A DNA stretch of 64,000 nucleotides, from NCBI GenBank assembly GCA_016182805.1, contig JACPFV010000003.1:16285-80284 (forward strand), read 5' to 3'. Positions within the stretch are counted from its first letter, which is position 1, and each line of letters starts with the position of its first letter. The translations under genes and the position numbers were made by a program. This document shows positions 3,673 to 44,237 of the stretch, piece after piece. Source of the stretch: Gammaproteobacteria bacterium (GTDB lineage: Bacteria > Pseudomonadota > Gammaproteobacteria > Nevskiales > Nevskiaceae). Below the pieces are notes generated by a model. That model saw only the letters and a list, made by a program, of their open reading frames with translations. It did no database searches and had not been told where the DNA came from.

Positions 3673-3798
3673 AGCAGAACCCCCTCCCATTCCACCGTAC
3701 AGGCGAGGGCGAACCCGCAAGGCTCCCCCTCCGCTCTTGCTTTGCCGGCTGCAGCCGTTTGCCGCAGTCTGGTCCCGGCCCGCCGGCAAGGCAAGCGT

Positions 3799-10623: not shown

Positions 10624-10637
10624 GACGGAACTCGCGG

Positions 10638-26898: not shown

Positions 26899-27621
26899 GT
26901 GAACGCAGACCTTCCGGACGATGCCGGCGACTCGCGCGCCGCGCGCAGCGCCGTCACGCGCGCCAAGCTGGTCGCGATCGCCGAGCGGCTGTTCGCCGAG
27001 CGCGGCATCGAGGGCGTTTCGCTCAACGACATCAACAAGGCCGCCGGCCAGCGCAACAAGAACGCCACCCACTACCACTTCGGCAGCAAGCAGGGCTTGT
27101 TGCAGGCGATCCTGGACAAGCACGAGCCGGGCATCGCGGCGCGGCGCGACCACCTGCTGGACGAGTGCGAGGCGCGCGGCGAGCTGACGCTGCGCAACAT
27201 CGTGCACGCGATGGTGCAAGCACTCGCGGAAAAGCTGTTCGATCCGGACGGCGGGCGCGATTTCATCCGCTTCAACGCGCAACTGGTGATCACGCACACG
27301 ACCGCTGCGCTACGGCCGGAGGAAGCCACGCTCAAGCTGAGCGAGGTGGAGCGCGTGACCACGCTGCTGCGCCGCGTGCTGCCCAATCTGCCCGATGAGC
27401 TGGCCTACCAGCGGGGAATCCTGTCCGCCTCGCTGCTGATGCACGGCATGGCGGAATACTCGCGCGTGCTGGACGGTCTCCAGGAGCAGGAAGCGCGCGC
27501 CCACGCCGCGCTGCTCGTCGCCGACCTGGAGGACGGCATGACGGCCCTGCTGGCCGCCGAGCCTTCGCCGGAGACGCGGGCGCTGCTCGCTACGATTCCA
27601 CGTACACCCGCAGCGCGCTGA
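26899..27621 (+). CDS. TetR family transcriptional regulator
   Basis: An N-terminal HTH is present (RAKLVAIAERLFAERGIEGVSLNDINKAAGQRNKNATHYHFGSK). GTG 26899 is preceded by gaggag. Confidence 0.9.
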   Translation: MNADLPDDAGDSRAARSAVTRAKLVAIAERLFAERGIEGVSLNDINKAAGQRNKNATHYHFGSKQGLLQAILDKHEPGIAARRDHLLDECEARGELTLRNIVHAMVQALAEKLFDPDGGRDFIRFNAQLVITHTTAALRPEEATLKLSEVERVTTLLRRVLPNLPDELAYQRGILSASLLMHGMAEYSRVLDGLQEQEARAHAALLVADLEDGMTALLAAEPSPETRALLATIPRTPAAR

Positions 27622-28462
27622 TCCGCTTCGGGCTGCGGTCGAAGCGCAGCAGTACGACACCGCGCCGGGCCTGCCCGTCGATCTCCAGCGTGAGGCTGGC
27701 CGTGACCGTGCGGCCGGCGGCGAGCATCTTGGTCCAGCCGCGCAGGCGCAGGCGCGACACCAGCTCCGCCAGCGTCGCGTCCCCGCCCACGGCCACCTCG
27801 ACCGTTGCGTCGGGTTCGAGCTGCTGCGCGGCCCACGCGGCATCTCCGCGCTTCCAGTTGCCGAGCAGCGCCTGCGCGCGCCGCTTGCCGGCGCGGCCGA
27901 CACCGAAGAATCCCCGCATGAAACCGAAAACGCCGCCCAGGCCCTGCCGCGCCAGCATGCGGCCGCTCAGCGCGGTGAAGGTCCACAGGCCCTTGAAGCC
28001 GGTCCGCAGCGCCTGCCCGACCATAGGCAGCAATTCCCAGTGCGCGTACAGGCGCCGGATGCGCAGAGCGCCGCCTTCCTCGGCGATCTCGTACAGCAGG
28101 TGCGCCGGAACATCCAGCCGCAGTCCGGACGGCATGGTCGTTTGGATCGTCACATCGCGCACCACGGTCGAGCCGCACACCAGGTCCTGGTTCGAGCGGA
28201 AGCGGATGGCATTGGGCGCGATGAAGGTGTCGTAGAAACGCTCCAGCGCCGCGCGCCCGACGTGCGGGCGCGAGCCGACGGGGTCGTTGACCAGGCCGTC
28301 GCTGGCGTACAGCGCGAGCCAGCCGGCGCGGTCGTGGACGGCGACCGCCGCCGGCGAGGCCTTGGCCGTCTCCAGCAGGCGTGCGGCCGACCCGGTCCCG
28401 GTACCGCCCCCCATCTGGGCCGGAACCGGGACGTGACGGCTCATACCCGTCTCAGGCGACAT
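27590..28462 (-). CDS. NTF2/SnoaL-like (ketosteroid-isomerase-fold) two-domain protein
   Basis: The N-terminal half has the SnoaL-like pattern (..WLALYASDGLVNDPVGS..GRAALERFYDTF). The start is ambiguous (28462 or 28444). Confidence 0.65.
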   Translation of the reverse strand: MSPETGMSRHVPVPAQMGGGTGTGSAARLLETAKASPAAVAVHDRAGWLALYASDGLVNDPVGSRPHVGRAALERFYDTFIAPNAIRFRSNQDLVCGSTVVRDVTIQTTMPSGLRLDVPAHLLYEIAEEGGALRIRRLYAHWELLPMVGQALRTGFKGLWTFTALSGRMLARQGLGGVFGFMRGFFGVGRAGKRRAQALLGNWKRGDAAWAAQQLEPDATVEVAVGGDATLAELVSRLRLRGWTKMLAAGRTVTASLTLEIDGQARRGVVLLRFDRSPKRISALRVYVES

Positions 28463-29246
28463 AAGGGATCAGCGCCTTGCGCTCGGCGGGATACTCCGGG
28501 AATTTGTCGCGGTACCACTTGTGCGTGGCGAACGCGCGCGGCACCAAGTTGCCGGCCGAGATCAGGAAGATCATCACGCCCGGCAGGCCCCAGGTCATCA
28601 GCGCGAAGCCGGCCCAGGCGATCAGCTCGCCCAGGTACTGCGGGCTGGACACGAAGCGGTAGCCGCCGCCGTACGGAATCCGGTAGTCGCCGCCGCCGGC
28701 CGCGAGCTTGGCCGGGTCGCGCAGGCTGCGCACCACCGCCTCGGAATGGACGATCAGGGCGAAGCCGCCGTAGTAGACGACCAGGCCCGCCAGGAAGCGC
28801 GGATCGCGGAACCAGTCGCCGGTAAGGTGCGTGCCGTACTCGGTGAACAGCGTGGCGTTGAGATAGGCGTGGATCGCCGTCACGAACATGCCGGCGCCCA
28901 CCACGGTGACGCTGAAGGTGCTGCGCCGGCCCTTGGCCACGCGCATGGACAGCGGAAAGAACCAGCCGCGGTTGCCGTAGTGGATCATCCACACCAGGCC
29001 CAGCACCAGCGGCATCGGCTCCCAGGCGCGCGGACCCTGCGCGAAGAACCAGACGAACACCACCGTCGCCGGGATCTCCATCAGCCACCAGCCGAGCTTG
29101 GGGTGCAGGTTCACGCCCATCCGGTCCGAGGCGAAACGGCCGTATGGGCTCGCCACGAACAGCGAGCCGACGATGGTGAACAGCGCAAAGCCGAAGCCGA
29201 TCGCGAGCACCGTGTCGTAGGTCGAATTGCCGGTGTACCAACTCAT
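28452..29246 (-). CDS. Membrane 3-oxo-5-alpha-steroid 4-dehydrogenase (steroid 5-alpha-reductase) family protein
   Basis: The protein is polytopic and hydrophobic. The C-terminal signature is YRIPYGGGYRFVSSPQYLGE...W......H.WY..KF..YP. ATG 29246 lies behind gggagcggg. Confidence 0.8.
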   Translation of the reverse strand: MSWYTGNSTYDTVLAIGFGFALFTIVGSLFVASPYGRFASDRMGVNLHPKLGWWLMEIPATVVFVWFFAQGPRAWEPMPLVLGLVWMIHYGNRGWFFPLSMRVAKGRRSTFSVTVVGAGMFVTAIHAYLNATLFTEYGTHLTGDWFRDPRFLAGLVVYYGGFALIVHSEAVVRSLRDPAKLAAGGGDYRIPYGGGYRFVSSPQYLGELIAWAGFALMTWGLPGVMIFLISAGNLVPRAFATHKWYRDKFPEYPAERKALIPYVA

Positions 29247-29286
29247 TTCGCCCGCTCCCGTTTGCCCATGGTCATCCGCATCTCCT

Positions 29287-31023
29287 TCACGCCGCGGCGG
29301 CGATCGTGGTCCCCGCCGAGGCGCGGCCAAGGTCCTGCGCCGCCAGGTACGCGAAGGTCATCGCCGGACCCAGCGTCGCGCCGGGGCCGGCGTACGTGCG
29401 CCCCATGACCGCCGCGGAGCAATTGCCCACGGCGTACAGGCCTTCGATGCGGCTGCCGTCCTCGCGCAATACGCGCGCGTGCTCGTCGGTGACGAGGCCG
29501 CCCTTGGTGCCGATCTCGCCGGCCTGGAGCTGCACGGCGTAGAACGGCGGCCTGGCGATGGGCGCGAGGCAGGGATTGGGCTTTACGCCGGGATCGCCGT
29601 AGTAGCGGTCGAAGGCGTTGTTGCCCTTGCCGTGCTCCGGGTCCACGCCGTCGGCGGCGTAGCGGTTCATCTTCGCCACCGTTTCGGCCAGCGCCGGCGC
29701 GTCCACGCCGATCTCGCGCGCCAGCGCGTCCAGCGAGTCCGCGCGCCAGTAGACCTTGCCCAGCCAGTCGCGCGGCAGGCGCGCGTCCGGCTGGATGCTG
29801 CCGGGCAGCATCGGTCCCATCGGGTACTTGCGGCGGAAGTCGGCGTCGAAGATCAGCCAGCACGGCACCGCGCCGCCGGACTTTTCGTGATCGCGGTACA
29901 TGGCGTAGACGATCTCGGTGTACGGCGCCGCCTCGTTGACGAAGCGCCGGCCCTGGCCGTCGACCATCACGCATCCGGGAAGCTGGCGCTCCATGAAGAT
30001 GCCGGTGGCGTTGCGCGCGCCCGGCGTCATGATCGACGGCGTGCCCCAGGTCAGGTTCATGAAGCCGAGCCTGGCGCCGAGCGCGCGCCCGGCGCGGATG
30101 CCGTCGCCGTGGTTGATGCCGGGCGCCACGGTCCATTCGGCCCGGGTCGGCTTGGGCAGGTACTGCTCGCGCATCGCCTGGTTGGACTCGAAACCGCCGC
30201 AGGCCAGCACCACGCCGCGCCGCGCGCGGATGCGCAGCGTCCTGCCGCGCTGGCCGGCCACCACGCCGGCGACGCGGCCGTTTTCCTCGACCGGCGAATC
30301 CAGGCCCGTCTCCAGCCACAACGGCACGCTGTTGCGCAGCATGGCGTAACGCAGCGAGGCGACCATCGCCTGGCCCAGCGTCTGGCGGCGGTCGCGCCAG
30401 GTCCTGCGGCGCCAGCCGAAGTCCAGCCAGTAGCGCAGCAGCATCTTCACCGTCAGCCACACCCAGCCGGGACCGCGGCACAGCAGCGTGTGCGCCTCGA
30501 CCTGGGTCATGGCGATGCGGCCCATGACCAGCGTGCCGCGGTACGGCTCGCGCTGGCGCTCGAACTCCGCTCCCAGCAGTGCGCCGTCGAACTCCGCCGG
30601 CTCCATCGTGCGGTAGCCCGGCTTGCCGCCGGGCCGGTCCGGAAAGTAGTCCGGGTACCGGGCCACCGACTCGAAGCGCACGCCGAAGGCCTGCGCCATG
30701 TGGCGCACCATCTCGCGCGCGTGGCGCACGTAGGCTTGCAGCCGCGTCTGCGGCACTTCCCCGCCGGTGAGATGGTTGAGATAGGTCAGCGCCTCGGCCT
30801 CGGAGTCGCTACCGCCGCGCGCGGCGATCTGGTCGTTGCAGGGAATCCAGATGCCGCCGCCGGACACCGCGCTGGTGCCGCCGTAGCGGTCGGACTTCTC
30901 CAGCACTACCGCCGACAGGCCGAGCTGCGCGGCGCACAGCGCCGCAGTCATGCCGCCGGCGCCGGAGCCGACCACGACCACGTCGAACTCGTGGTCCCAG
31001 GCGCCCGATGCGGTGCCGCTCAT
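29287..31023 (-). CDS. kstD: 3-oxosteroid 1-dehydrogenase
   Basis: The N-terminal block FDVVVVGSGAGGMTAA...EKSDRYGGTSAVSGGGIW and the C-terminal block GLYAVGN are typical of KstD. I trimmed to MSGTASG. Confidence 0.85.
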   Translation of the reverse strand: MSGTASGAWDHEFDVVVVGSGAGGMTAALCAAQLGLSAVVLEKSDRYGGTSAVSGGGIWIPCNDQIAARGGSDSEAEALTYLNHLTGGEVPQTRLQAYVRHAREMVRHMAQAFGVRFESVARYPDYFPDRPGGKPGYRTMEPAEFDGALLGAEFERQREPYRGTLVMGRIAMTQVEAHTLLCRGPGWVWLTVKMLLRYWLDFGWRRRTWRDRRQTLGQAMVASLRYAMLRNSVPLWLETGLDSPVEENGRVAGVVAGQRGRTLRIRARRGVVLACGGFESNQAMREQYLPKPTRAEWTVAPGINHGDGIRAGRALGARLGFMNLTWGTPSIMTPGARNATGIFMERQLPGCVMVDGQGRRFVNEAAPYTEIVYAMYRDHEKSGGAVPCWLIFDADFRRKYPMGPMLPGSIQPDARLPRDWLGKVYWRADSLDALAREIGVDAPALAETVAKMNRYAADGVDPEHGKGNNAFDRYYGDPGVKPNPCLAPIARPPFYAVQLQAGEIGTKGGLVTDEHARVLREDGSRIEGLYAVGNCSAAVMGRTYAGPGATLGPAMTFAYLAAQDLGRASAGTTIAAAA

Positions 31024-31087
31024 GGCAGGTGTTCCTCGCTTATCTTGAAAGTCCGCGCCATGGACGGCGCGGGTTTGAACAGGACGT

Positions 31088-32293
31088 TCAAATGAAGAAA
31101 TCCGTGTTGTCGCGGCCCAGCAGCACGCCGCCGTAGTTGCGCCCGAAGATATCCGGGTTGTTGGCGTAGTGCGCACGCGCCGCGTGGATGTCCAGGAAGT
31201 GTCGCACCAGCGGGAAGTCGGTGAAGATGCCGCGCCCGCCGCAGGCCGAGAACAGCGCGTAAGCGTGCCGCGCGCAGCGATCCACCACCTGCGCCGCCTG
31301 GAAGCGGTAGTGCAGGCGCTCGTCGATGTCGTTGAGCGGCTGGCCGCTGCGGATCCTGGCGGGCAGCGTGTCGAAATTGCGGTTCAGCACCAGCTTCATC
31401 TCATCGATCGCGACCGTGGCCTCGGCCACCGCGATCTGCGCCGGCCCCTGCTCGGCGGTCTTGGCGCCCATGTTGCCGGTCCAGGCCTTGCCCCAGTCGC
31501 GGAAGGCGTTGACCATGCCCTGCAGCGCGCCGATGGCGGCGCTGGACACCGCGCGCACGAAGATCTGGCCGAACGGCAGGTCGTACAGCGTGGAGGTGAA
31601 CTCGGCGCCGCCGGGGTTGGTGCCCATGAAGCCGTCGGTGGCCTTGTGCGTGCGGTACTCCGGCACGAAGGCGTCCTTCACCACGATGTCCTTGCTGCCG
31701 GTGCCCTTCAGCCCCATGACATGCCAGGTGTCGACGATCTCGAAGTCTTTCCGCGGCAGCAGGAAGGTGCGGTACTCGGGCGGGCTCTTGCCGTCCTCGG
31801 CGAAGATCAGGCCGCCGAGGAACACCCACTGGCAGTGGTCGATGCCGCTGGAGAAGCCCCAGCGGCCGCTGAACCTGAAGCCGCCGTCGACCTTCTTCAC
31901 CTGGCCCTTGGGCATGTAGGTCGACGCGATCAGAACGGACCGGTCGTGGCCCCAGACGTCTTCGGCCGCGCGCGGATCGAACAACGCGATCTGCCAGTTG
32001 TGCACGCCGATCACGCCGTAAATCCAGGCGGTGGACATGCAGCCTTGCGCGAGCGTCATGACGATCTCGTAGAACACCTGCGGGTCCATTTCGTGGCCGC
32101 CGTACTTCTTCGGCTTCAGCACCTCGAAGAGACCCGCCTTCTGCATGTCGGCCACCGATTCCGCCGGCACGCAGCGGTCCTGCTCGGCCTTCCTGGCGCG
32201 CTCGGCCAGCACCGGCACCAGTTCGCGGGCGCGCTGGACCAGGACTTCGCGGGTCACCAAGGAAGCGGTGTTCTGGCGTGGGGGGGTCTGCAC
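31088..32293 (-). CDS. hsaA: Flavin-dependent 3-HSA hydroxylase, oxygenase component
   Basis: The blocks GVIGVHNWQIALFDPRAAEDVWG, GRWGFSSG and GLKGTGSKDIVV align by eye with HsaA/TesA2. Confidence 0.85.
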   Translation of the reverse strand: MQTPPRQNTASLVTREVLVQRARELVPVLAERARKAEQDRCVPAESVADMQKAGLFEVLKPKKYGGHEMDPQVFYEIVMTLAQGCMSTAWIYGVIGVHNWQIALFDPRAAEDVWGHDRSVLIASTYMPKGQVKKVDGGFRFSGRWGFSSGIDHCQWVFLGGLIFAEDGKSPPEYRTFLLPRKDFEIVDTWHVMGLKGTGSKDIVVKDAFVPEYRTHKATDGFMGTNPGGAEFTSTLYDLPFGQIFVRAVSSAAIGALQGMVNAFRDWGKAWTGNMGAKTAEQGPAQIAVAEATVAIDEMKLVLNRNFDTLPARIRSGQPLNDIDERLHYRFQAAQVVDRCARHAYALFSACGGRGIFTDFPLVRHFLDIHAARAHYANNPDIFGRNYGGVLLGRDNTDFFI

Positions 32294-32372
32294 GGCGTTC
32301 TCCTGGCCTTGATGGCTATGACATTGACGTTTTCACAGAAAAGCCGCGTCCAAGCTTCGTCCAAAATGACTA

Positions 32373-32391
32373 GGGTGCGTATGGCGCACCC
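32373..32391 (-). terminator. Candidate intrinsic terminator after the GH5 gene
   Basis: The arms gggtgcg and cgcaccc form a 7-bp stem. On the minus strand the stem is followed by tagtcatttt. Confidence 0.45.
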
Positions 32392-32429
32392 TGTCCCGGT
32401 GGAGGCCCACATAGGGGCCGACACGGGGA

Positions 32430-33452
32430 CTAGAGCGGAGCGAGAGCCACGGAAACTTCCGCCGCACCGGCGAGGTTCTCCAGCAGCAGCGCCGGCGCGT
32501 CGGCTGCGGAGACCACGCGCGCACCCTGCACCTCGACGCGATAGCCCTTCGGGTAGTGCACGGCCAGCGGCACGAAGATTTCGGTCGGACCGCCGGCGGC
32601 GCGCGGCGTGTAGCGGTAGCGGAACTCGCCCGCCACCGGCACGAAGCCGGTCGGCGCGCCGGTGCCGCCGGACAGGAGTTGCGGCTCGAACCAGACCAGG
32701 TTGTGCGGATCGGCGCGTCGCACGCCGGCCAGGCCATGCTCCATGAAGGGCTGGATTTCGTCGCGGTCGGCGTCCGGGCAACCGACCGCCGGCGGGAAGA
32801 TGCAGCTCGGCCATTCCTGCCCGGACCACGGCTCGTTCAGCAGGTCGTAGCCCATGTGGTACGGCTGGTCCTTCCAGCGCGCCGCGACCGCGGTCCAGGC
32901 GTCGCGAAACCCGTCCCACACCGGCCCGCGCTCGGCCCAGAGCTTGTCGAACAGCTCGGAGACCTGCGGCGTGAAATAGTTGAACGGAAAGCCGAACTGC
33001 GGCGGCGGCAGCCCCTCGCCCTGGAACTGCGGCGACATCTGGTCCTGGTGGAAGTCGAACAGCATCCAGATGCGCTGCGCCGCCAGGAGCCGCACCACGC
33101 GGTCCCATTGCTCCAGGTAGGCGGGGTCGACCTCTCCCGCTTCCCGCGGCATGACGCCGGCCCACAAGGTGCCGATGCGCGCGCCGTTGAAGCCGTGCTG
33201 CGCCAGCCAGCGCGCGTCCGCCGCGGTGAAGCCGGCCGGCGTGTCGGGCGGCACGTGCGGCGCGGTCTTCCAGATCAGGTTCATGCCGTGCACCAGCACC
33301 ACGCGGCCCAGCGGGTCCACCAGCCAGGGACCCTCGCGGCGCAGCCGCGGCGCGTCGGTCGATGCGCGCGCGTCCGCCGGCGGCGGGGACTCCATGCAGC
33401 CCGCCGACGACAGGATTCCCAGCACCGCAAGACCGCATACGACCGGATTCAT
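32430..33452 (-). CDS. GH5-family glycoside hydrolase lipoprotein (endoglycoceramidase/cellulase-like)
   Basis: A lipobox LSSAGC is present. GH5 blocks are present: HGMNL, FNGARIG, DFHQD, LLNEPW (acid/base) and VWFEP (nucleophile). I trimmed this from a 969-aa fused frame. Confidence 0.8.
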   Translation of the reverse strand: MNPVVCGLAVLGILSSAGCMESPPPADARASTDAPRLRREGPWLVDPLGRVVLVHGMNLIWKTAPHVPPDTPAGFTAADARWLAQHGFNGARIGTLWAGVMPREAGEVDPAYLEQWDRVVRLLAAQRIWMLFDFHQDQMSPQFQGEGLPPPQFGFPFNYFTPQVSELFDKLWAERGPVWDGFRDAWTAVAARWKDQPYHMGYDLLNEPWSGQEWPSCIFPPAVGCPDADRDEIQPFMEHGLAGVRRADPHNLVWFEPQLLSGGTGAPTGFVPVAGEFRYRYTPRAAGGPTEIFVPLAVHYPKGYRVEVQGARVVSAADAPALLLENLAGAAEVSVALAPL

Positions 33453-33487
33453 CGGCGTTCCCGGAACGCAGGTTCGGCAGGATCGTG

Positions 33488-36292
33488 CTACGCGGCGGGA
33501 GTGCCGGCCTCGTCCGCCCGGCGTAGAGGACCGCGCATCAGGAACCGGCAGTACGCCGGGCACAGCAGCACCGCGCCCAGCATGTTGGCGCCGAACATGA
33601 ACACCAGCAGCAGGCCCATGTCGCGCTGGAACTGCAAGTCCGAGAACAGCCAGCTCGCCACGCCGCCGGCCAGGCACAGGCCGGTGAACAGCACCGCCTT
33701 GCCGGTGCGCCGCAGCGTCTCGTAGTACGCCTCGCGCAGCGGCAGGCCGCGGACGTGGACCTGCTCGTGCAGCACGTCGTAGATGTAGATGCCGTAATCC
33801 ACGCCCACGCCCACCGCCAGCGCCACCACCGGCAGCGTCGCCACCTTCAGGCCGATGCCGAAATACGCCATCAGCGCATTGGCGAAGATCGAGACCATGA
33901 ACAGCGGGATGCAGATCGCCAGCAGCGCGGCGACGGAGCGGTACGACAGGATCAGCAGCGCCGCGATCACGGCGTAGACCCACAGCACGGTCGGCAGCTC
34001 GGTCGCGCTCACCACCTCGTTGGTCGCGGCCATCACGCCGACGTTGCCGGACGCGATGGCGAAGTGGACCGGGCATTCGTCCGGCAGGGCCGCCCGCCCG
34101 GATTGCAGCGCCGCCTCGCGCTCCGCCAGCGCGCCGGCTTCCGGATCGGCGGCGATCCGCCGCTCCGTCCAGCCCTGCGCGCGCAACAGCGCCCTGCGCT
34201 CTTCGAGCCGCGCGTGGGCGACGCCGGCGTCGCGGCGCAGCTGCGTGCGCTCGTCGCAGGCCGCCGCCGCCGCTTGCGGATGATCCTCGTAGAACTCGCG
34301 CGCGTTGGCGGCGTTGAAGTCCTTGACCGCCCGCACGATGCGCGCGACGGTCGCGGCGCGATGGTCGGCGGTGAAGATCAGCACCGGCATGGCGCTGCAA
34401 TCCGGGTTGAGCAGCCCGGTATTGGTGTGGATGGCGTGGTTCACCATTGCCAGCACGTTCTGGTTGCGCGGCAGCACGCGCAGCTTGGGGCTCAGCTCCC
34501 ACAGCCCGGAATGAAACTGCTCGGCGACGGTGGTGAATGCCTTGACCGACTGCACGCCGGCGACGTTCTCCACATGCCAGGCGAAGCGGTCGATCTGGTC
34601 GAGCACGCCGAACTGCGCGCAGCCGCTGGGCTCCGTTTCCGCGACGATCTTGAGCAGGTCGGTGCCGATCGCGAAGCCGTCGACGATGGCGCGCACGTCG
34701 CGGTTGTAGACCGAGTCCGGCCGCAGCTCCGGCACGCCGGCCTGCGCGTCGCCGACGATGCGCCGGCCCTGGTAGCTCCAGGACAGCGCCAGCACGGCCA
34801 GCGAGAGGACCACCAGCCCCGCCGCCACCGGCGCCTCGGTAACGACCGAGACCGTACGCCACAGGCGGTCGCCGGCGTGCATCCGGCGCCGGCGGCGCGC
34901 GCGGAAGGCGGCGACGTCGGCCACGCCCAGGTGCGACAGCCACACCGGCATCATCGCCTTGTTGGTCACGATCACCGCGAACATGCCCAGGCAGGCGTGG
35001 GTGGACATCTCGCGGATGATCTCGATCGGCACCAGCTGCAAAGTGAGGAAGCCGGCGACATTGGTGACGAGCGCCACCGTGCCGGGGATGAACAGGCGCC
35101 GGAAGGTCTCGCGCGAGGCGTCGAAGCCGTCGCGGCCGTGCAGCACCTCGTCGGCCCAGGTGCTCACGTACTGCACGCCGTGGCTGGTGCTGACCGCCAG
35201 CACCAGGAACGGCACCAGGATCGCGAACGGGTCCAGGCCGTAGCCGAACGCGCGCAGCAGGCCGAACTCCCACACCACCGCGACTGCCGAGCAGGCCAGC
35301 GGCAGCAGGGCCAGCCGCAGGTCGCCCAGATACCACCACAGCGCCAGCATGGTGGCCAGCACCGTCAGCAGGAAGAAGCCGACCACCTCGGCGGTGGCGT
35401 CGGCGACGTCGCCCACCACCTTGGCGAAGCCGATGATGTGGACGTCCACGTCCGGGTTGTACTGCGGGTTCGGCTGGACTTCGAGCGCCAGCTCGCCGGC
35501 GCGAAGCTCGACGCGGGCGACCGAGCCGTCCGGCATCGCCCGCTCCGCCGCGAACGTCCTCAGCCAGCGGCTGGCGACGCCGCGCGCGCGGAACTCCTCG
35601 CCGACGACCTCGCCGGCCGCGAACGGCGGCCGCGCCTCCTTGAGGCGGTAGACATAGCGCGTGGGACTGGAGAAGCGCCGCCGCAGCTTGTCCTCAAGAT
35701 CCTCCGCCACGCGCGCATAGTCGGTGCGCCGGAACGTCGCGGGATCGCGCTCCAGCACCTCGGCCACGACCATGGCGCCGCGCTGGTCCTTGCCGACCAG
35801 CCGCCCGATTACGCCGGCCTTGCCGACGTTGGTGCGGATCAGCTCGAACATCTCCGGCGTCGGCGCGTATTCCGCCGGGATCACGTCCTCGGCGATGACG
35901 CCGCCGTCCACCACCTCGACGTAGCGCACGTCGCGCGTGAAGATCGACGACACGCGCGCGCGGTCGATGCCGGGCGTGAAGAAAACCTCCTCGGTCGCCG
36001 CCTTGAGCGTCGCCAGGAAGCGCTCGTCGTAGATCGTGCCGCCGCGGCGCACCAGCGCGATCAGCACGGTGTTGGCGCCGCCCAGCTCCTGCTGGTACTG
36101 GCGGAACACCTGCATGTACGCGTGCTCCAGCGGCAGCGACTTGTCGAAGCTCGCGTCGGGCCTGACCTGCACGGCGAGCGCGCCCAGCAGCAGCGTCGCC
36201 AGCACCAGGGTCAGGACGCAGGCGCGCCGCCCGGTGCGGCTGTACAGGACCGGCTCGACGACGGCCAGCAGGTCGCGCGCGGCGATCGGCAT
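33488..36292 (-). CDS. RND superfamily transporter, MMPL/HpnN-like (paralogue b, enlarged)
   Basis: It shares blocks with paralogues a and c (GANTVLIAL, GFAKVVGD, SGNVGVMAATNE, GVGVDYGIY). It carries two extra segments of ~70 aa (about 35450-35671 and 34070-34303). Confidence 0.9.
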   Translation of the reverse strand: MPIAARDLLAVVEPVLYSRTGRRACVLTLVLATLLLGALAVQVRPDASFDKSLPLEHAYMQVFRQYQQELGGANTVLIALVRRGGTIYDERFLATLKAATEEVFFTPGIDRARVSSIFTRDVRYVEVVDGGVIAEDVIPAEYAPTPEMFELIRTNVGKAGVIGRLVGKDQRGAMVVAEVLERDPATFRRTDYARVAEDLEDKLRRRFSSPTRYVYRLKEARPPFAAGEVVGEEFRARGVASRWLRTFAAERAMPDGSVARVELRAGELALEVQPNPQYNPDVDVHIIGFAKVVGDVADATAEVVGFFLLTVLATMLALWWYLGDLRLALLPLACSAVAVVWEFGLLRAFGYGLDPFAILVPFLVLAVSTSHGVQYVSTWADEVLHGRDGFDASRETFRRLFIPGTVALVTNVAGFLTLQLVPIEIIREMSTHACLGMFAVIVTNKAMMPVWLSHLGVADVAAFRARRRRRMHAGDRLWRTVSVVTEAPVAAGLVVLSLAVLALSWSYQGRRIVGDAQAGVPELRPDSVYNRDVRAIVDGFAIGTDLLKIVAETEPSGCAQFGVLDQIDRFAWHVENVAGVQSVKAFTTVAEQFHSGLWELSPKLRVLPRNQNVLAMVNHAIHTNTGLLNPDCSAMPVLIFTADHRAATVARIVRAVKDFNAANAREFYEDHPQAAAAACDERTQLRRDAGVAHARLEERRALLRAQGWTERRIAADPEAGALAEREAALQSGRAALPDECPVHFAIASGNVGVMAATNEVVSATELPTVLWVYAVIAALLILSYRSVAALLAICIPLFMVSIFANALMAYFGIGLKVATLPVVALAVGVGVDYGIYIYDVLHEQVHVRGLPLREAYYETLRRTGKAVLFTGLCLAGGVASWLFSDLQFQRDMGLLLVFMFGANMLGAVLLCPAYCRFLMRGPLRRADEAGTPAA

Positions 36293-36346
36293 GATTCGGG
36301 TTCCAGCGGCGTTCGCGCCAGTATGGAGGCCGGCGCGGGCGGCGCC

Positions 36347-37327
36347 TCATCCGCCTGGGCGAGAGCCTGCCATGCCGCAACCGCGCAGGAAGTAGTGCAC
36401 GTACCAGGCAGCGGCATCGAAGTCGAAGGCGACCGATTCGCCGGGGAACACCTCGCTGAAGCCCGCCGCCGGGGCGCCGAGCATTTCGGCGGCGGCGGCG
36501 CCGTCGATGCCCAGCACGCCGGCGTTCGGCTCCTGCCCCGGAAGCAGCGCGACGCCGTGCGCGGTGTCGCCGCTGCGGGTGTAGAGGACCGGCCGCGAAG
36601 GGCCGTCCGCCGGCCGCGGCAGCGGCCGCGGGCGGCCGTCCAGGTCGAAGGCGGCCAAGCCGATCCGCACACCGCCGCCGGCATCGCACCGGACCGCCAA
36701 GCGGTAGCGTCCCAGCGCGCTGGACGCCGTGCACTCCAGCGCATAGCGCGGCGCCCGCCCGAACAGCTCCGGCAGCTCGTCCACCACGCACAGCGAGGGA
36801 ATCTCGGCGCCGTCGCCGGCGAAGCTCCACGCCCCCGCGTAGCGCCGCGCCGCGGACGAACCCTCCAGGGCCACCAGGGCGGCGAGCAGAATCGCGCCGG
36901 CCAGCAGTCCTGCGCGGCCGGCCGGCGTGAGCCGATCCTCGACCCCGGCGCCGGGCGTGCGCAGCAGGCGCAGCACCGGTCGGTGCCTGCGCGCCGGCCG
37001 CGGCCGCTTGAGAAGGTACGGCGCCAGGCGCAGCTCGCGCAGCGCGGACCGCTCCGCCTCGGCGGCGGGATCGCTTTCCTCCACCAGCTGGCAGCCCAGC
37101 TCGTGCTTCCTGAGCACGCGCGCGATCCGTTGGGCCTCCTCCTCCGGCGTGCCGCGCGCAAGCACGGTGCGCTGGTCGCACATCAGCTGCGCCAGCCGCT
37201 CCGCGCCGGCGAACGGGAACATGCGCCGCAGGCGCTCGAACAGGTTGCGGTCGTTCGGCGGCGCCCAGCGCAGGCGCCCGGTGCGCCCGGTGAACACCAC
37301 GGTGAAAAGCCGCTCCGCCGCCGCCAT
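36347..37327 (-). CDS. Hypothetical single-pass membrane protein
   Basis: Third codon positions are strongly G/C-rich. There is one hydrophobic helix (AGLLAGAILLAALVAL). I recognised no family. Confidence 0.7.
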   Translation of the reverse strand: MAAAERLFTVVFTGRTGRLRWAPPNDRNLFERLRRMFPFAGAERLAQLMCDQRTVLARGTPEEEAQRIARVLRKHELGCQLVEESDPAAEAERSALRELRLAPYLLKRPRPARRHRPVLRLLRTPGAGVEDRLTPAGRAGLLAGAILLAALVALEGSSAARRYAGAWSFAGDGAEIPSLCVVDELPELFGRAPRYALECTASSALGRYRLAVRCDAGGGVRIGLAAFDLDGRPRPLPRPADGPSRPVLYTRSGDTAHGVALLPGQEPNAGVLGIDGAAAAEMLGAPAAGFSEVFPGESVAFDFDAAAWYVHYFLRGCGMAGSRPGG

Positions 37328-37356
37328 GCCGCCGCCCGATCCGCGCGCGGCCGCGC

Positions 37357-38955
37357 TCAGGCGCGCGACCGCTTCTCCGCGTACATGCGCTCGTCCGCCC
37401 GCGACAGCAGCCGGTCGAGCGGCTCGGCGGCGTCGGCGTCGAACTCGGTGGTGCCGATGCTGACGGACAGCAGGAACGGGCCGGCGTTGGCGACGTTGAA
37501 CGCGCGCAGCTCGTTGGCGATGCGCTCGCGCACGATGCCGATCTGCGCGCCGCGCGCGAACACCACGAACTCGTCGCCGCCGACGCGCGCCACGATGTCG
37601 CTGTCGCGCACGGTGCGCCGCAGCACCTGCGACACCTGGCTGAGTGCGGTGTCGCCGCTGGCGTGGCCGAACATGTCGTTGATCTGCTTGAGGCCGTCGA
37701 CGTCGGCGACCAGCAGCGCGCAACGCTGCCGCTCGCGCTGGGCGTGCTTCAGCTCCTGCTCGACCAGGAGCTTGAAGCCGCGGCGGTTGTACAGGCCGGT
37801 CAGCTCGTCGGTCAGGGCGTCGCGCCGCACGCGCTCCTGGTCGCGCATCTTTTCCGTGATGTCGGCGGCGACGCCGCCGATGAAGCGCCGCCCGCCCCAG
37901 CCGACGAAGCAGAAGCGCACCAGCTGCCAATGGCGGTCCGGGCCGCTGATGGCCGGCACGCTGCCGGTGGTCTCCAGCGGCTTGCCGCTGTCCAGGACCC
38001 GCAGCTCCCCTTCGCGGCAGGCGCGCGCAAAGTCGTGCGGCAGCAGGTCGAAGTCGGTCTTGCCGCGCCAGCTGTCGTCGCTCACGCCGAGGAATCGCTT
38101 GTGCAGCTCGTTGGCGTACAGGTAGCGGCCTTCGTCGTCCTTCATCCAGACCAGCGCCGGACTGTGGTCGAAGAACGCCTGGAAGCGCGCCTCGCTCTCG
38201 CGCAGCAGGCGCTCGGCGTGGTTGCGCTCGCTGACGTCGACGCCGATGCCCGCGACGTAGTGACGGCCGTCGGCGTCGGTGACGCGAAACTTGTCGATCC
38301 GCCAGTCCACGCCGGCGCCGTGACGGTCGACGTTGCGCGTCTCGTAGACCAGCGGCTCGCCGGTGCCGAGGACGCGGCTGTCGGTCGCGGCGTACTGCGC
38401 CGCGTCGTCCGGGCGGAAGAATTCCGCGTCGGAGCGGCCGCTCCAGTCCTCGCCCGGCTCGCCGTAGCGGTCCTGGTGCGCCTTGTTGCGGAACACATAG
38501 CGGTGCCGCGCGTCCTTGATCCAGGCGATCGCCGGCATGTGGTCCATGAACGCCTTGAAGCGCGTCTCGCTGTCGCGCAGCGCCGCCTCCGCCCGGCGCA
38601 GCGGCGTCATGTCCAGCGCGACGCCGATCACCCCCTGGATCGCGCCGTCGGCGTCGCGATAGGGCGCGACGCGCACGTGGACTTCCCGGCCCTCGCCGGA
38701 CTGCTCCCATCGCAACTGGAATCGCTGCGGCTCGCCGGTGGTCAGGGCGACGGTGGCCAGGCGCTGCCACTCGGCGCGCTGCGCGTCGGTCAGGCTGGCG
38801 CGTCCGAAATCGTCGGCCGCCATCGTTCCGCCCGGCAGGCCGGAAAACTGCGCCATGGCGCGGTTGATGTGGATGCTTTGCAGCGTCGCGTCCAGCCGGA
38901 ACACGCCGATCGGCAGGCTGTCCAGCAGGCTTACGCAGTCAGGGCATGTCGGCAT
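37357..38955 (-). CDS. PAS/PAC-repeat diguanylate cyclase (GGDEF)
   Basis: Three PAS-like repeats are followed by DELTGLYNRR...GGDEF, with an RxxD I-site (RDSD) five residues upstream. ATG 38955 lies behind gggggagga. Confidence 0.9.
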   Translation of the reverse strand: MPTCPDCVSLLDSLPIGVFRLDATLQSIHINRAMAQFSGLPGGTMAADDFGRASLTDAQRAEWQRLATVALTTGEPQRFQLRWEQSGEGREVHVRVAPYRDADGAIQGVIGVALDMTPLRRAEAALRDSETRFKAFMDHMPAIAWIKDARHRYVFRNKAHQDRYGEPGEDWSGRSDAEFFRPDDAAQYAATDSRVLGTGEPLVYETRNVDRHGAGVDWRIDKFRVTDADGRHYVAGIGVDVSERNHAERLLRESEARFQAFFDHSPALVWMKDDEGRYLYANELHKRFLGVSDDSWRGKTDFDLLPHDFARACREGELRVLDSGKPLETTGSVPAISGPDRHWQLVRFCFVGWGGRRFIGGVAADITEKMRDQERVRRDALTDELTGLYNRRGFKLLVEQELKHAQRERQRCALLVADVDGLKQINDMFGHASGDTALSQVSQVLRRTVRDSDIVARVGGDEFVVFARGAQIGIVRERIANELRAFNVANAGPFLLSVSIGTTEFDADAAEPLDRLLSRADERMYAEKRSRA

Positions 38956-39072
38956 GGGTCCTCCCCCACAAGTGAACCCTGGCCGGTTGCGCCGCCGTTG
39001 TTGTTTCGGCAGCTCCGCGGCGCCGGCCATGGCGGTACGCTAACCGCCCGGCCGCGGCGTCGCAAGCCGCTT

Positions 39073-40287
39073 TCAGCGCAGGAAATTGAACAGGGACAGG
39101 CCCTGGATCTTGAGGAAGGACTGCTGCGAGGCTTCCAGCGTGGTCAGCGCCAGTTGCAGTCGGCTGACCGCCTCGGCGTAATCGAGGTCGCGCACGCCGG
39201 ACAGCGTCTCCTGCAACTGCACGTCCAGGGCCTCCTGGGCGCCGATGGTGTCCTCCAGCGCATTGAGGCGGCCGCCGACCGTGGCGCGCACCGTCTGGAT
39301 GTGGTCCAGGCCGCGGTCGAGGTCTTCCAGGGCGTTGTAAACGCCGTTGTGCATCTGCGCGGCCGACGCCGACGTGCCGGTGGACGTGGACAGGGCGTCG
39401 ATCAGGTTCTGCACCGTGGAAAACAGGTCCTGCGCGGCGCTCGGCTCGACGGTAAAGACGTCGCCGGTCGCGGGAGTGCCGCCGACCGCGATCTCCACGC
39501 CGGAGAAGCCGATCGCCTCGCCTTCCGTGTAGGTGCCGCCGGAGACGACCGTGGCCGGGCTGCCGGGGCCGGTGGTGCGGACCACGTCGAAGGTCGTGGC
39601 GCTGGTGAACGTGAGCGTGTAGGTCTCGCCGTCGTACGCGGAGGGGTCGGCCAGGCGCGCGGCGCCCAGCGTGCCGGAGCCGGTGTTGGCCGGATCGGCG
39701 GTATAGCGGAACGTGCCGTTGCCGTTGGCGATGCGCTGGAACGCCTCGCTGCCGGGGGTGCCGTCGGCGATCTCGCGCTCCGGCCCGATCGCGATGTAGC
39801 GGTAGCTCTGGTCGCCGGAGTAGCCGACGCCGGTCGCGGTCTTGGCGAACGGCGCCGCGCCGTTGTTGCCGCCGGCGAATATGAAATTGCCCTCGCCGTC
39901 GTCCTGGTTGGCGAGGTTGACGAGCTGGTCGAACTGCTGGCGCAACTCCGCCACGATCTGCCGGCGGTCGACGTCGGTCAGCGCGTCGGTGTTGCCCTGC
40001 ACCGCCAGCTCGCGCACGCGCTGGATCACGCCGGTGACGCTGCCGAGCGCACTTTCCTCGACGTTCAGGCGGTGGCGCGCCGCGCTGGCGTTGTCCTTGT
40101 AGCGCGACAGTTCGGCCAGCCGCTGATCCAGCGCCAGGCCCTGCGTGAACTCGGCCGGGCTGTCGGCCGCGGTGGTGTGCTTGAGGCCGGTGGTGAGCTG
40201 CTGCTGCACCTTGAGCAGGCTGGACTGCCGGTCGAGGATGCCGGCAACCGCCTGCCGGTAGATGGCGTCTGTCGCGATACGAGGCAT
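39073..40287 (-). CDS. flgL: Flagellar hook-filament junction protein 3
   Basis: The N- and C-termini are flagellin-like, and the gene lies directly after flgK. Confidence 0.9.
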   Translation of the reverse strand: MPRIATDAIYRQAVAGILDRQSSLLKVQQQLTTGLKHTTAADSPAEFTQGLALDQRLAELSRYKDNASAARHRLNVEESALGSVTGVIQRVRELAVQGNTDALTDVDRRQIVAELRQQFDQLVNLANQDDGEGNFIFAGGNNGAAPFAKTATGVGYSGDQSYRYIAIGPEREIADGTPGSEAFQRIANGNGTFRYTADPANTGSGTLGAARLADPSAYDGETYTLTFTSATTFDVVRTTGPGSPATVVSGGTYTEGEAIGFSGVEIAVGGTPATGDVFTVEPSAAQDLFSTVQNLIDALSTSTGTSASAAQMHNGVYNALEDLDRGLDHIQTVRATVGGRLNALEDTIGAQEALDVQLQETLSGVRDLDYAEAVSRLQLALTTLEASQQSFLKIQGLSLFNFLR

Positions 40288-42188
40288 CAGCGTCTCACCG
40301 CGCTAAGTATGGTCTGGAACAGCGTGTCGGTCAGCGCGATGATCTGCGCCGACGCCTGGTAGGCCTGCTGGAAGCGCACCATGTTGGCCGCCTCCTCGTC
40401 CAGGTTCACGCCGGACACGCTGTCGCGAAAGCTCTGGTCGTGCTCGCGGATGGCGGTCTGCGCCGCAACCCGCTGCGCCGCCTGCTGCGCCTGCGCGCCG
40501 ACCTGCGCGACCAGGGCGCCGTAGCCGCCGTTGAGCGAGCGCGTGCCGCCGTCCAGCACGCCGAGATTGCGGATGTCGGCGAGCAGGCGCGCGTTGCCGT
40601 TGTCGCCGCTGTTGGCGGCCACCGGCAGCACCTGGAAAGTGTCGCCCGCGGCCGGCGTGCCGGTGATCTGGATGCGCCACCCGTTGTAGTCGATGTTGCC
40701 GCCCACGGTGAACGCGATCGGCGCGCTGGTGCCGTTGCTGTCGGTAATCGTGAACGTGCCCGGCGGGTCGTCGAACACGATGGTCGCGTCGAGCAGCAGG
40801 TCGGCGTCGGCGACGTCCAGCACCTCGGGACGGCCGACGACGCCGGTGCCGTCGTTGGCCAGCGCCGCCTCGGTGCGCACCGGCGCCGCCGCGGCGATGC
40901 GCGCCGCATCGGTGATCGCCACGTCCAGCGAGCCGGCGGCGCCGCGCGTGGCGCGGATCTCGTAGCGGTCCCCGGCGACCGCGCCGGCGGCGATGGCGAT
41001 GCTCAGGCCGGCGGCAGTGAAGGTGCCGCTGGCGGCGCCGAAGGTCGCGACCGTGTCGCCGGTCTCCGCGCTTTGCAGCTCCCAGGCGGAGCCGGTGAAG
41101 CGCATCAGATAGGTCTCGCCGGTCAGGCCGCCGACGTCGTCGTACGCGACGCCGACCACCGCCGGGCCGTCGTTGTTGGTCGCGGCCGACACGCCGGGCG
41201 CGGGCACGTCGAAGAAGTCGCCGCCGAGATCGCCGTACAGGTCGACGCCTTCCGCGTGCTGCGCGTTGAAGGTGTCCGCCAACGCGACGGCGACGCGGCC
41301 GAGGTCGCCGGCCGCCGGGTCGAGCACGTCGCGCCGGAACGACAACAGGCCGCCGAGGCTGCCGCCGCTGACGAACCGCGTCAGCGGGATCAAGGTGTTC
41401 CCCTGCTGCAGCGCGATGCCGTAGCGGTCGGCGTTGAAGTCGTCCTGCACCAGGCGCAGCGGGCTCACCGTGGTGCCCAGCACCAGGGCGTTGCCGCCGG
41501 CGGTGAAGATGTTGAGCGCACCGTCGTCCTGCGTCACGGTGGCGATGCCGATGTGCGACGCCAGCTCCCTGACCAGTTCGTCGCGCTGGTCGAGCAGGTC
41601 GTTGGGCGGCTGCCCGCCGGCGAGGCCGCGCGCGATGGCGATGCGGTCGTTCATGTCCGCGATCTGCTCGGTCAGCGTGTTGATCTCGCCGACCTGCTGC
41701 TGCAACTGGCGATTGACCTCCAGGTTGAGGCTGTCGAACTCGTTTTGCAGGTTCTGGAACCGCCCGGCCAGCAGTTCGGCCTTGCCCAGCAGCACCTGGC
41801 GCGCGGCCGAGGAGGTCGGGTCGGTGGCCACGCCATCCACCGCCGCGTAGAACTCCGACAGCGGGTCGGTCAGGCCGAGGTTGCGATCCGACAGGATCTT
41901 GTCGACGCGGCCGGTCAGCGTTTGCAGCGTCTCCTGCTGCGACATGTTGGAGGCGTCGAACATCAGCCGCTCGGTGGCGAAGCGGTCGGCCACGCGCGTG
42001 ACGGTGGAGACCTCCACGCCCGAGCCGATGAAGCCGCTGCCCAGCGCCGTGCCCAGGCGCGACACCTGCTCCACGCGCTGGCGCGTGTAGCCCTCGGTGT
42101 TGGCGTTGGCGATGTTGTGGCCGGTCGTGGCCAGCGACTTCTGGTAGGCCAGCAGCGCGGAAATGCCGGTGCTCAGCAGGTCGGCCAT
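40287..42188 (-). CDS. flgK: Flagellar hook-filament junction protein 1
   Basis: The N-terminal block GISALLAYQKSLATTGHNIANANTEGY and the C-terminal block MVRFQQAYQASAQ are present. Confidence 0.95.
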   Translation of the reverse strand: MADLLSTGISALLAYQKSLATTGHNIANANTEGYTRQRVEQVSRLGTALGSGFIGSGVEVSTVTRVADRFATERLMFDASNMSQQETLQTLTGRVDKILSDRNLGLTDPLSEFYAAVDGVATDPTSSAARQVLLGKAELLAGRFQNLQNEFDSLNLEVNRQLQQQVGEINTLTEQIADMNDRIAIARGLAGGQPPNDLLDQRDELVRELASHIGIATVTQDDGALNIFTAGGNALVLGTTVSPLRLVQDDFNADRYGIALQQGNTLIPLTRFVSGGSLGGLLSFRRDVLDPAAGDLGRVAVALADTFNAQHAEGVDLYGDLGGDFFDVPAPGVSAATNNDGPAVVGVAYDDVGGLTGETYLMRFTGSAWELQSAETGDTVATFGAASGTFTAAGLSIAIAAGAVAGDRYEIRATRGAAGSLDVAITDAARIAAAAPVRTEAALANDGTGVVGRPEVLDVADADLLLDATIVFDDPPGTFTITDSNGTSAPIAFTVGGNIDYNGWRIQITGTPAAGDTFQVLPVAANSGDNGNARLLADIRNLGVLDGGTRSLNGGYGALVAQVGAQAQQAAQRVAAQTAIREHDQSFRDSVSGVNLDEEAANMVRFQQAYQASAQIIALTDTLFQTILSAVRR

Positions 42189-42192: not shown

Positions 42193-43122
42193 TTATGCGC
42201 TCAGGGTGGCGGATGCCGCCGGCACCGCGTTCAGTGCCGGGCTTTGCGCCAGGGCCGACAGCTTGTCGGCGTACAGGGGGTCGGTGGCATAGCCCGCGGC
42301 CTGCAGCCCGCGCGCCCAGCGCTCTTCGTCCTGGCCCTTGCGCAGGGCCTCGGCGTAGCGCGGCTGCGTCTTGAGCAGGCGCACGTAGTCCTCGAAGCTC
42401 GCCTCGATCGAGGGATAGGCGCGGAACTCCTCGCGCTGGCGCAGCGCGGCGCCACCCTCGTATTCCGTGGTCATGCTGCGCACGCGCGCGCCGTCCCAGC
42501 CCGCGCCGGCCTTGATGCCGAACAGGTTGTAGCTGGGCGTGCCGTCGGGATGCCGGATCGGGTGCCGGCCCCAGCCGGTTTCGAGCGCCGCCTGCGCGAT
42601 CAGCATGCGCGGCGAAACGCCCAGCTCCCCCGCCGCCTTCTGCGCGTGCGGCAGCAGGTCCTTGACGAACTGTTCGGGTGTTTCGGGACGCCAGTCGGCG
42701 GGACGCGAACCCGGTGCGGACAACGCGGAGAACAATTGCTGCGGCGGCTTCCTGCCGCCCAATGCGGACGTCGCCATGTCCGCGATATCGGCGGCGGCGC
42801 CGGCGGCTGTAGCGCCGTCCGTGACGCCGTTCGCACCCTGGAGCTGGCGGATCATCACCTCGGCCAGGCCCAGGCCCTTGCCGGAGGACAGGTGCACCGC
42901 CATCTGCTGGTCGAGCATGTCCTTGTAGAAGCCGCCCTGCTCGCCGGTGAGGTCGTCGCCGAAGCTGACCGCGCGCATGCTCTTCATCAGCATCTGCGTG
43001 AACAGCGCCTCGAACTGGCGCGCCGCCTCGCGCAGCACCTTGGGATCGTTGCCCTGCGCCGCCTCGCGCAGCCGCGCCAAGCCGGCGAAATCGGTGGCGA
43101 CCGGGACGGGCGCGACGCTCAT
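42193..43122 (-). CDS. flgJ: Flagellar rod-assembly protein/muramidase
   Basis: An N-terminal rod-binding block (FEALFTQMLMKSMR) is joined to a C-terminal glucosaminidase domain (AALETGWG..YNLFGIK). Confidence 0.95.
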   Translation of the reverse strand: MSVAPVPVATDFAGLARLREAAQGNDPKVLREAARQFEALFTQMLMKSMRAVSFGDDLTGEQGGFYKDMLDQQMAVHLSSGKGLGLAEVMIRQLQGANGVTDGATAAGAAADIADMATSALGGRKPPQQLFSALSAPGSRPADWRPETPEQFVKDLLPHAQKAAGELGVSPRMLIAQAALETGWGRHPIRHPDGTPSYNLFGIKAGAGWDGARVRSMTTEYEGGAALRQREEFRAYPSIEASFEDYVRLLKTQPRYAEALRKGQDEERWARGLQAAGYATDPLYADKLSALAQSPALNAVPAASATLSA

Positions 43123-43123
43123 G

Positions 43124-44230: not shown

Positions 44231-44237
44231 GGCGCGC

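Follow-up and report, generated by a model that had tools for sequence, protein, structure and literature searches.

The window analysed here is a stretch of 64,000 nucleotides of contig JACPFV010000003.1 (assembly GCA_016182805.1, positions 16,285 to 80,284) from a gammaproteobacterium of the Nevskiaceae. On its minus strand a gene for a putative lipoprotein of glycoside hydrolase family 5 (GH5) starts 35 nt beyond the stop codon of a gene for a resistance-nodulation-division (RND) transporter, here called RND b. A first-pass annotation of this DNA located both genes correctly and read them as a module in which the GH5 protein deglycosylates a glycolipid or steryl glycoside and an enlarged RND protein transports it, feeding an adjacent steroid pathway. 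The gene families, the steroid flank and some of the synteny stand up to analysis, but the functional module does not, the nucleophile of the hydrolase being deleted in this copy; the module cannot work in this genome, and intact versions of the arrangement are found in relatives. The window GH5 gene is very likely a recently inactivated, still open-reading remnant of a ~510-aa endoglycoceramidase (EGCase)-like lipoprotein. The two genes do adjoin hsaA and kstD homologues, but on the coding strand it is these that lie downstream of RND b and GH5, and not the reverse as had been described. The features on which the argument turns are the following.

33488-36292, minus strand: RND transporter gene b, 934 aa, HAE3/MmpL-like (12 predicted transmembrane helices, two periplasmic domains; Pfam MMPL)
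32430-33452, minus strand: endoglycoceramidase-like GH5 gene with internal deletions, coding for a putative lipoprotein of 340 aa (PF00150, PF18564, NF051847)
33005-33014, minus strand: deletion junction 1, after QGEG(LP), aa 147-149; ~48 nt (~16 codons) missing
32826-32843, minus strand: LLNEPW block, aa 204-209, with the retained acid/base Glu207 (from alignment)
32622-32627, minus strand: deletion junction 2, between Glu276 and Phe277; ~450 nt (~150 codons) missing
32433-32624, minus strand: retained part of the C-terminal beta-sandwich, aa 277-340, aligning with residues 392-460 of PDB entry 5CCU
31088-32293, minus strand: hsaA-like flavin monooxygenase gene, directly 3' of GH5 (match to NF045629, HsaA)
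29287-31176, minus strand: kstD-like 3-ketosteroid dehydrogenase gene (match to NF005882)

Two in-frame deletions within the gene, of ~16 and ~150 aa, account for the shortness of the GH5 protein. Full-length homologues among the matches listed are ~490-570 aa long, against 340 aa for the window protein. In alignments with 11 homologues (12 sequences) and with 70 full-length homologues (71 sequences) both gaps occur in the window protein alone and in none of the 70. At junction 1 all 70 homologues hold 14-17 residues with the consensus VPEWAVExLxGPxxT, and at junction 2 all hold 146-152 residues. The larger deletion takes out barrel strands 6-8, three of the eight, and with them an invariant His (FHNYC), a Glu (TEFGA) that is invariant in 70/70 homologues and a Trp/Tyr cluster (WxYWxYK). 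The alignments show descent of the gene from a predicted ~510-aa endoglycoceramidase-like lipoprotein that is intact in related bacteria.

Retaining GH5 enzymes use an acid/base Glu in an NEP motif on strand 4 and a nucleophile Glu on strand 7. The best solved-structure and family match of the window protein is endoglycoceramidase I (EGCase I) of Rhodococcus equi/hoagii (5CCU, 5J14 and 5J7Z; NCBIfam NF051847), with which it aligns in two pieces (28-260 with 35-271 and 252-322 with 392-460 of 5CCU; E 6.8e-45). This leaves ~120 residues of 5CCU (272-391), the TEFG Glu included, without a counterpart. At the position aligned with this Glu wild-type 5CCU reads ITEFGDG, whereas the substrate-complex entries 5J14 and 5J7Z read ITSFGDG; because Glu in the former is Ser in the latter, the TEFG Glu is identified as the catalytic nucleophile. 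Two blocks of the window protein had been put forward as catalytic. One of them, LLNEPW, is the invariant acid/base block: N206, E207 and P208 fall in invariant alignment columns, and its counterparts in the alignments are LLNEPW in 5CCU and LMNEPF in EGCase II. The other, VWFEP, is matched in 5CCU by VYWEP, near residues 264-268, differs from the mutated catalytic Glu and is non-catalytic. On alignment, one of the grounds on which the first-pass annotation had itself said that its reading could fail, the catalytic Glu pair is therefore incomplete: the acid/base Glu of the NEP motif is present and the nucleophile Glu, TEFG in this branch, is lacking, as is a complete (beta/alpha)8 barrel. With its nucleophile block deleted the predicted product cannot perform retaining GH5 hydrolysis, and it probably does not fold.

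What remains of the protein is readily recognisable. Pfam Cellulase/GH5 (PF00150) matches at E 1.7e-13, although over profile positions 24-166 of 272 only, and the EGCase I equivalog model NF051847 matches at E 2.7e-63 with 214 bits, under its 700-bit cut-off; both bear out the original placement in the endoglycoceramidase/cellulase clan. The C-terminal beta-sandwich, at first reported absent, is present in part, since Pfam Glyco_hydro_5_C (PF18564) matches aa 268-325 (profile positions 14-73 of 87) with 35.8 bits, the cut-off being 22; its first strands went with deletion 2. The N-terminus, MNPVVCGLAVLGILSSAGC (33396-33452, minus strand), resembles a signal peptide with a lipobox. The motif SSAGC follows the h-region and its Cys aligns with the lipobox Cys of homologues, so that the proposed lipobox may be present, but the n-region has no Lys/Arg before this Cys where homologues do. 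The public gene call begins at Met20 (321 aa).

The adjacent steroid pathway is real, given the hsaA-like and kstD-like genes and further catabolic genes along the window: an HsaC-like extradiol dioxygenase, a CoA-transferase, thiolases, an enoyl-CoA hydratase, acyl-CoA dehydrogenases and a MaoC hydratase. The hsaA-like product scores 361 bits against NF045629, under the cut-off of 450, and the kstD-like product 598 bits against NF005882, under the cut-off of 788. This predicted gene content points to the locus being the edge of a Nevskiales steroid catabolic region of the 9,10-seco type. No kshA was found in the window, nor were counterparts of the AcrAB-type efflux operon, DUF1295 and DUF1329 genes of relatives' clusters.

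The same steroid genes accompany GH5 elsewhere. A scan with the GH5 alignment, taking one genome per species, returned 46 loci, and in 13 of these an intact GH5 gene lies beside hsaA-like (72-80% identity) and kstD-like (64-68%) genes, in 12 of the 13 on the same strand as and upstream of them. Carriers include Fontimonas thermophila, Solimonas flava, S. variicoloris, S. soli and S. terrae as well as Stagnimonas and Sinimarinibacterium. In all five loci examined, a kshA gene (Rieske and KshA_C domains) is found immediately upstream of the intact GH5 and divergent from it.

L001, 180-1283, divergent: kshA (domain matches)
L008, L016, L017 and L032, about 8.6-10.1 kb, divergent: kshA (domain matches)

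These synteny counts indicate that the stable unit is GH5-hsaA-kstD, usually with kshA. The steroid link holds for about half of the gammaproteobacterial GH5 loci, since in Zhongshania and Solimonas aquatica steroid genes are absent from the GH5 neighbourhood, which holds CusCBA-type efflux, DUF2126 and trehalose genes instead.

The RND gene is not part of this unit. An RND b orthologue within 10 kb of GH5 was found in 0/46 species-representative loci. The proposed co-occurrence is nevertheless seen in three metagenomic lineages, in which RND is followed by intact GH5 and an hsaA-like gene; in two of these (L055 and L051/L052) the pair is interrupted by another gene, and a further lineage (L056) is without GH5.

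L050, 942-10088: TetR-OEP-MFP-AcrB-RND-GH5 (518 aa)-hsaA-like
L051/L052 (L051, 3598-12772): as L050, except that a Usp gene on the opposite strand separates RND from GH5; beyond hsaA-like lie kstD-like, DUF1295, SDR, DUF1329 and ECH genes
L055, 1-8775: as L050, with an opposite-strand methyltransferase gene between RND and GH5
L056, 6001-12052: RND orthologue (63% identity), 263-nt spacer, hsaA-like, kstD-like; no GH5 remnant
L053, L054 and L057: RND orthologue in unrelated contexts

L056, with no trace of GH5 between RND and hsaA, is a case of complete GH5 loss in a lineage that keeps the remaining arrangement. The RND gene is thus a facultative neighbour of GH5 in one subclade, and GH5 itself is dispensable there. 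It was also observed that in L050, L051, L055 and L054 (92-6055) the 923-925-aa RND gene stands last after a full TetR-OEP-MFP-AcrB efflux operon, so that two different RND permeases are in tandem; in L056 this operon and RND point away from each other.

Damage to GH5 is not confined to the window. In L046, a metagenome-assembled genome (MAG) of Panacagrimonas, the gene (10004-10878) is frameshifted with an out-of-frame internal loss of ~195 aa, a deletion that begins close to the position of junction 1 in the window. In L049, a Solimonas MAG, it is shattered, with fragments in all three frames (~10025-10520). These two pseudogenes are independent of the window copy. Judged from these genomes and from L056, the GH5 gene is dispensable and its decay is recurrent in relatives.

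The second member of the proposed module, RND b, was examined in the same manner. It matches Pfam MMPL with 61.9 bits (cut-off 20.5) and TIGR00921 (HAE3) with 101.6 bits, under the cut-off of 351.9. Its AlphaFold2 (AF2) model (pLDDT 86, pTM 0.81) has the twelve transmembrane helices and two large periplasmic loops, after helices TM1 and TM7, of an RND transporter. It is 40-50% identical to two paralogues in the window, a (275-2713) and c (60283-62694). The two insertions reported by the first-pass annotation lie close to where it drew them, one in each periplasmic loop.

35459-35674, minus strand: RND insertion 1, aa 207-278, located where periplasmic domain 1 ends, just before TM2 (from alignment)
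34070-34300, minus strand: RND insertion 2, aa 665-741, located where periplasmic domain 2 ends, just before TM8 (from alignment; missing from paralogues a and c)

Insertion 1 is likewise missing from both paralogues, and from homologues of 857-872 aa. Enlargement of the protein had been taken as a special trait of this locus. In a 57-row alignment of RND b and paralogues a and c with 54 database homologues, insertion 1 is present in 49/54 of the homologues and insertion 2 is full-length in 47/54 and half-length in 7/54, and orthologues of RND b in the Nevskiales form more than 100 clusters (918-950 aa, 50-70% identity, ~99% coverage). We therefore regard RND b as an ordinary member of a large, uncharacterised, Nevskiales-centred MmpL/HAE3-like family, and infer that its insertions are ancestral family features and not a locus-specific adaptation. 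The insertions diverge more than their surroundings: both show 33-39% identity (39% for insertion 1) against 62% for the remaining protein. Structure prediction, which had been proposed for both, gives for insertion 1 a small beta-rich subdomain (strands 211-217, 229-233, 246-252, 258-264 and 268-274) and for insertion 2 a helical hairpin (helices 676-705 and 710-734). The latter, together with a composition of 25% Ala, 16% Arg and 13% Glu, agrees with its description as Ala/Arg/Glu-rich and coiled-coil-like. A Cys pair at the base of insertion 2, C679/C740, is found in all 55 orthologues and in neither paralogue, and in the modelled protein the hairpin would be closed by a disulfide between the two.

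The best folds for RND b in the PDB are those of MmpL4 and MmpL5 (9DP6, 8ZKP, 9GI0, 9SYJ and others; Foldseek E 1e-20), with a TM-score of 0.70-0.77 on the target and an identity of 12-14%, followed by MmpL3, NPC1-type proteins and AcrB. By sequence profile the match to solved structures is weak and confined to the transmembrane bundle, MmpL4/5 and HpnN being best; against HpnN (5KHN) RND b scores 44 bits, the cut-off being 752. In MmpL4/5, too, the second periplasmic domain has an inserted helical coiled coil. The hairpin of RND b is short (~30 residues per helix) and is a candidate counterpart of it, the likeness being one of fold; no MmpS-like partner of RND b was identified. MmpL-type RND proteins are known as exporters. 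The same is known of HAE3-type proteins, which include AmeD, the RND component for monoterpene efflux in the AmeABCD system of Castellaniella defragrans (PMC6394551). In the window, a YCF48/BNR-repeat (AmeC-like) gene stands before paralogue a and another before paralogue c, an order like that of ameCD; the two gene pairs span 275-3789 and 60283-63755. RND b differs in having no AmeC-like (YCF48-like), DUF1302 or DUF1329 partner beside it, in place of which an orphan gene lies upstream, and in carrying two periplasmic modules additional to the 787-aa AmeD. By analogy with the characterised HAE3/MmpL pumps, the most likely role of RND b is to move a hydrophobic compound outward from the inner membrane. 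That it adjoins hsaA and kstD in a subclade suggests, from context, steroids or toxic steroid intermediates as the cargo. Import by the RND protein to feed catabolism is mechanistically unlikely, since proteins of these families are exporters.

The history of the GH5 gene can be considered in the light of these comparisons. In the sequence of events that we favour, an intact GH5 gene would have stood immediately upstream of the hsaA-like and kstD-like genes; two in-frame deletions would then have struck it in this groundwater population, the larger arising between CGGCGAR repeats; and loss of the nucleophile, three barrel strands and the start of the sandwich would have left the hydrolase inactive. 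The borders of deletion 2 are in keeping with this. In the nearest GH5 homologue, P0002, which is 70-74% identical, they read GCC GGC GAA/ACC and ACC GGC GAG/TTC (slashes marking the border), where the window reads GCG GGC GAG TTC. A CGGCGA(A/G) direct repeat is thus present at both borders in P0002, consistent with a deletion between these microhomologies. That the deletions might be artefacts of assembly or binning, with a full-length GH5 in the true genome, is suggested by the low coverage of the source metagenome (depth about 4-10x) and by the tendency of contigs to drop rare variants. The window sequence is, however, present in three groundwater metagenome runs, and Logan contigs assembled independently from each span 32405-33892/34000, across both junctions, differing by a single substitution and free of indels. 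A 100%-identical short GH5 protein is also on record from an 87.6-kb contig. The agreement of these sources makes an artefact highly improbable, and both gaps are, moreover, exact multiples of three, with microhomology at the larger.

Several observations do weigh against inactivation. Both deletions are in frame, which two random deletions would be in roughly 1 of 9 cases. The GC content of third codon positions (GC3) is 0.88-0.97 along the entire open reading frame (ORF), with codon bias undiminished; 92/93 near-invariant positions in the retained parts are kept, the NEP block included; and the 35-nt spacing from RND b is tight and operon-like. A test for relaxed selection at the near-invariant positions gave no signal, the one deviation in 93 lying within the range of intact homologues, so that it does not separate recent deletion from constraint. 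It follows that either the event was recent or the remnant is still constrained, a choice that cannot be made from these data, as the in-frame state, codon bias, kept positions and spacing fit a very recent deletion just as well as they fit an expressed, constrained remnant. An AF2 model of the 340-aa protein (pLDDT 61, pTM 0.51; below 50 at both junctions and in the NEP region) adds weak evidence to the case for inactivation, since its alignment had 12 rows. On the same observations it could be argued that the short protein is still used, either as a non-catalytic glycolipid-binding lipoprotein working with the RND protein or as an enzyme with another nucleophile. This we consider unlikely: the barrel lacks three of its eight strands and the sandwich is incomplete, model confidence is low around both junctions, the positive charge is gone from the n-region of the signal peptide, no other short form was found among 119 homologues apart from contig-end fragments, and relatives carry outright pseudogenes or have lost the gene completely. 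The working module originally proposed, with GH5 as the deglycosylating enzyme for a glycolipid or steryl glycoside, which the enlarged RND protein would transport into steroid catabolism, finds encouragement in the gene families, in the steroid neighbourhood, in the synteny of L050, L051/L052 and L055 and in fungal EGCase-related GH5 enzymes that are steryl-beta-glucosidases (PMC8497620, PMC12061408). It is rendered very improbable here by deletion of the nucleophile and surrounding strands, by insertions that are family-wide, by the absence of the pairing from the species-representative loci, by a lineage that keeps RND-hsaA-kstD without GH5 and by the exporter character of HAE3/MmpL proteins (PMC6394551). 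Recent inactivation of a once complete lipoprotein gene is accordingly the reading that we adopt.

The intact orthologues in relatives are of separate interest. They share with EGCase I a signal peptide, GH5 barrel, C-terminal beta-sandwich and the NEP and TEFG blocks, and differ in being Gram-negative lipoproteins among steroid genes. Intact Nevskiales homologues match NF051847 end to end with 289-339 bits, less than half of the 700-bit cut-off, and for this reason are regarded as a separate branch from EGCase I whose substrate homology does not reveal. Endoglycoceramidase II of Rhodococcus sp. (2OSW/2OSX) has the same barrel, NEP block and C-terminal sandwich; it is a weaker match to the window protein (E 3.9e-13) and much more distant, and its nucleophile region is missing from the window copy. 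From gene context the intact orthologues are probably lipoproteins of the periplasm that cleave a beta-glycoside there and so release its hydrophobic aglycone. A steryl 3-O-glycoside is, again from context, the most logical candidate for the substrate, because a glycosylated 3-OH blocks formation of the 3-ketone needed by KstD, KshA and HsaA. A precedent exists in EGCrP2/Sgl1 of the fungus Cryptococcus neoformans, an EGCase-related GH5 steryl-beta-glucosidase acting on steryl 3-beta-glucoside (PMC8497620, PMC12061408), the likeness being drawn from its published description. That enzyme is eukaryotic, vacuolar and catalytically intact, with no link to steroid ring degradation. It is possible, and we put it forward tentatively, that the intact orthologues of the kshA/GH5-hsaA-kstD cassette (kshA divergent), which uncultured Nevskiales carry as well as the genera named above, are periplasmic hydrolases of steryl 3-O-glycosides or steroidal saponins that unblock the 3-OH for degradation of rings A and B, joined in a subclade by an MmpL-like RND protein whose helical hairpin is closed by a disulfide, and that the window represents a recent loss of this step in one groundwater population. 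A search of the open-access literature returned no paper linking endoglycoceramidase-like enzymes with steroid degradation, in agreement with the original remark that no described system of this kind was known, and a search on Nevskiales and steroid degradation returned nothing relevant. Since no open-access paper makes the connection, the cassette is an undescribed lead, and one that lies beyond what this window can demonstrate.

The result for the window itself is mainly corrective: a seemingly compact new glycolipid hydrolase is, on the reading adopted here, a freshly broken copy, and the 'enlarged' RND protein conforms to its family standard. The comparative work has as a by-product an EGCase-like lipoprotein that is stably embedded among ring-A/B-opening enzymes across a gammaproteobacterial order and has been lost or degraded several times. 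Plant litter is rich in steryl glycosides, and in biodiesel these compounds can cause problems. If the intact GH5 proteins do act on them, the cassette would supply a missing entry step of bacterial sterol catabolism together with a candidate enzyme, and deglycosylation would be built into the 9,10-seco pathway of bacteria in a way so far not described. The RND family, having no close solved structure and an MmpL4/5-like hairpin, is a target for structural work on Gram-negative lipid and steroid export.

Genes in the window, which has a GC content of ~70%, were called from a GC3 frame plot and domain scans (Pfam, NCBIfam). The order on the minus strand is flgI-flgJ-flgK-flgL, PAS-GGDEF, an orphan gene, RND, GH5, hsaA-like, kstD-like, SRD5A-like and SnoaL-like. 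An actinobacterial source, which hsaA/kstD, MMPL and the GC content might suggest, was rejected in view of the flagellar genes upstream and of the close homologues, all of which are from Nevskiales (Solimonas, Fontimonas, Panacagrimonas and relatives). The neighbouring genes are as follows.

43124-44425, minus strand: flgI (domain scans)
42193-43128, minus strand: flgJ (domain scans)
40287-42188, minus strand: flgK (domain scans)
39073-40287, minus strand: flgL (domain scans)
37357-39030, minus strand: PAS-GGDEF protein gene (domain scans)
36347-37327, minus strand: orphan gene, 326 aa, 5' of RND b, with one predicted transmembrane segment (strong GC3 coding signal)
28452-29330, minus strand: steroid 5-alpha-reductase-family (SRD5A-like) gene (domain scans)
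27590-28462, minus strand: SnoaL-like gene (domain scans)
32372-32392, minus strand: terminator-like hairpin with a T-rich tail, ~40 nt beyond the GH5 stop (terminator scan)

The orphan gene has no match in Pfam or NCBIfam and a single distant homologue (35% identity) among 5.8 billion proteins. It was considered as a possible partner of the RND protein and is found beside none of the RND orthologues examined. A 394-aa ORF with an ATG start (32254-33438) is out of frame and was dismissed as an artefact of the high GC content. A scan of 31000-39200 for sigma-70 promoters gave no candidates. The terminator-like hairpin sits inside a multi-copy element of ~65 nt (32368-32433) in the spacer between GH5 and hsaA. 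This element is single-copy in the window and is the sole match of many unrelated metagenome contigs, with a local depth of 20-75 where the adjoining sequence has 6-9; possibly it is a dispersed, REP-like repeat of intergenic regions. Elsewhere in the steroid/lipid catabolic region a second gene is possibly broken: an SDR gene (PRK08303-like) at 23903-24769 on the plus strand contains an in-frame TAG at 24227-24229 (...FLHDKLI, stop, KGPFWEK...).

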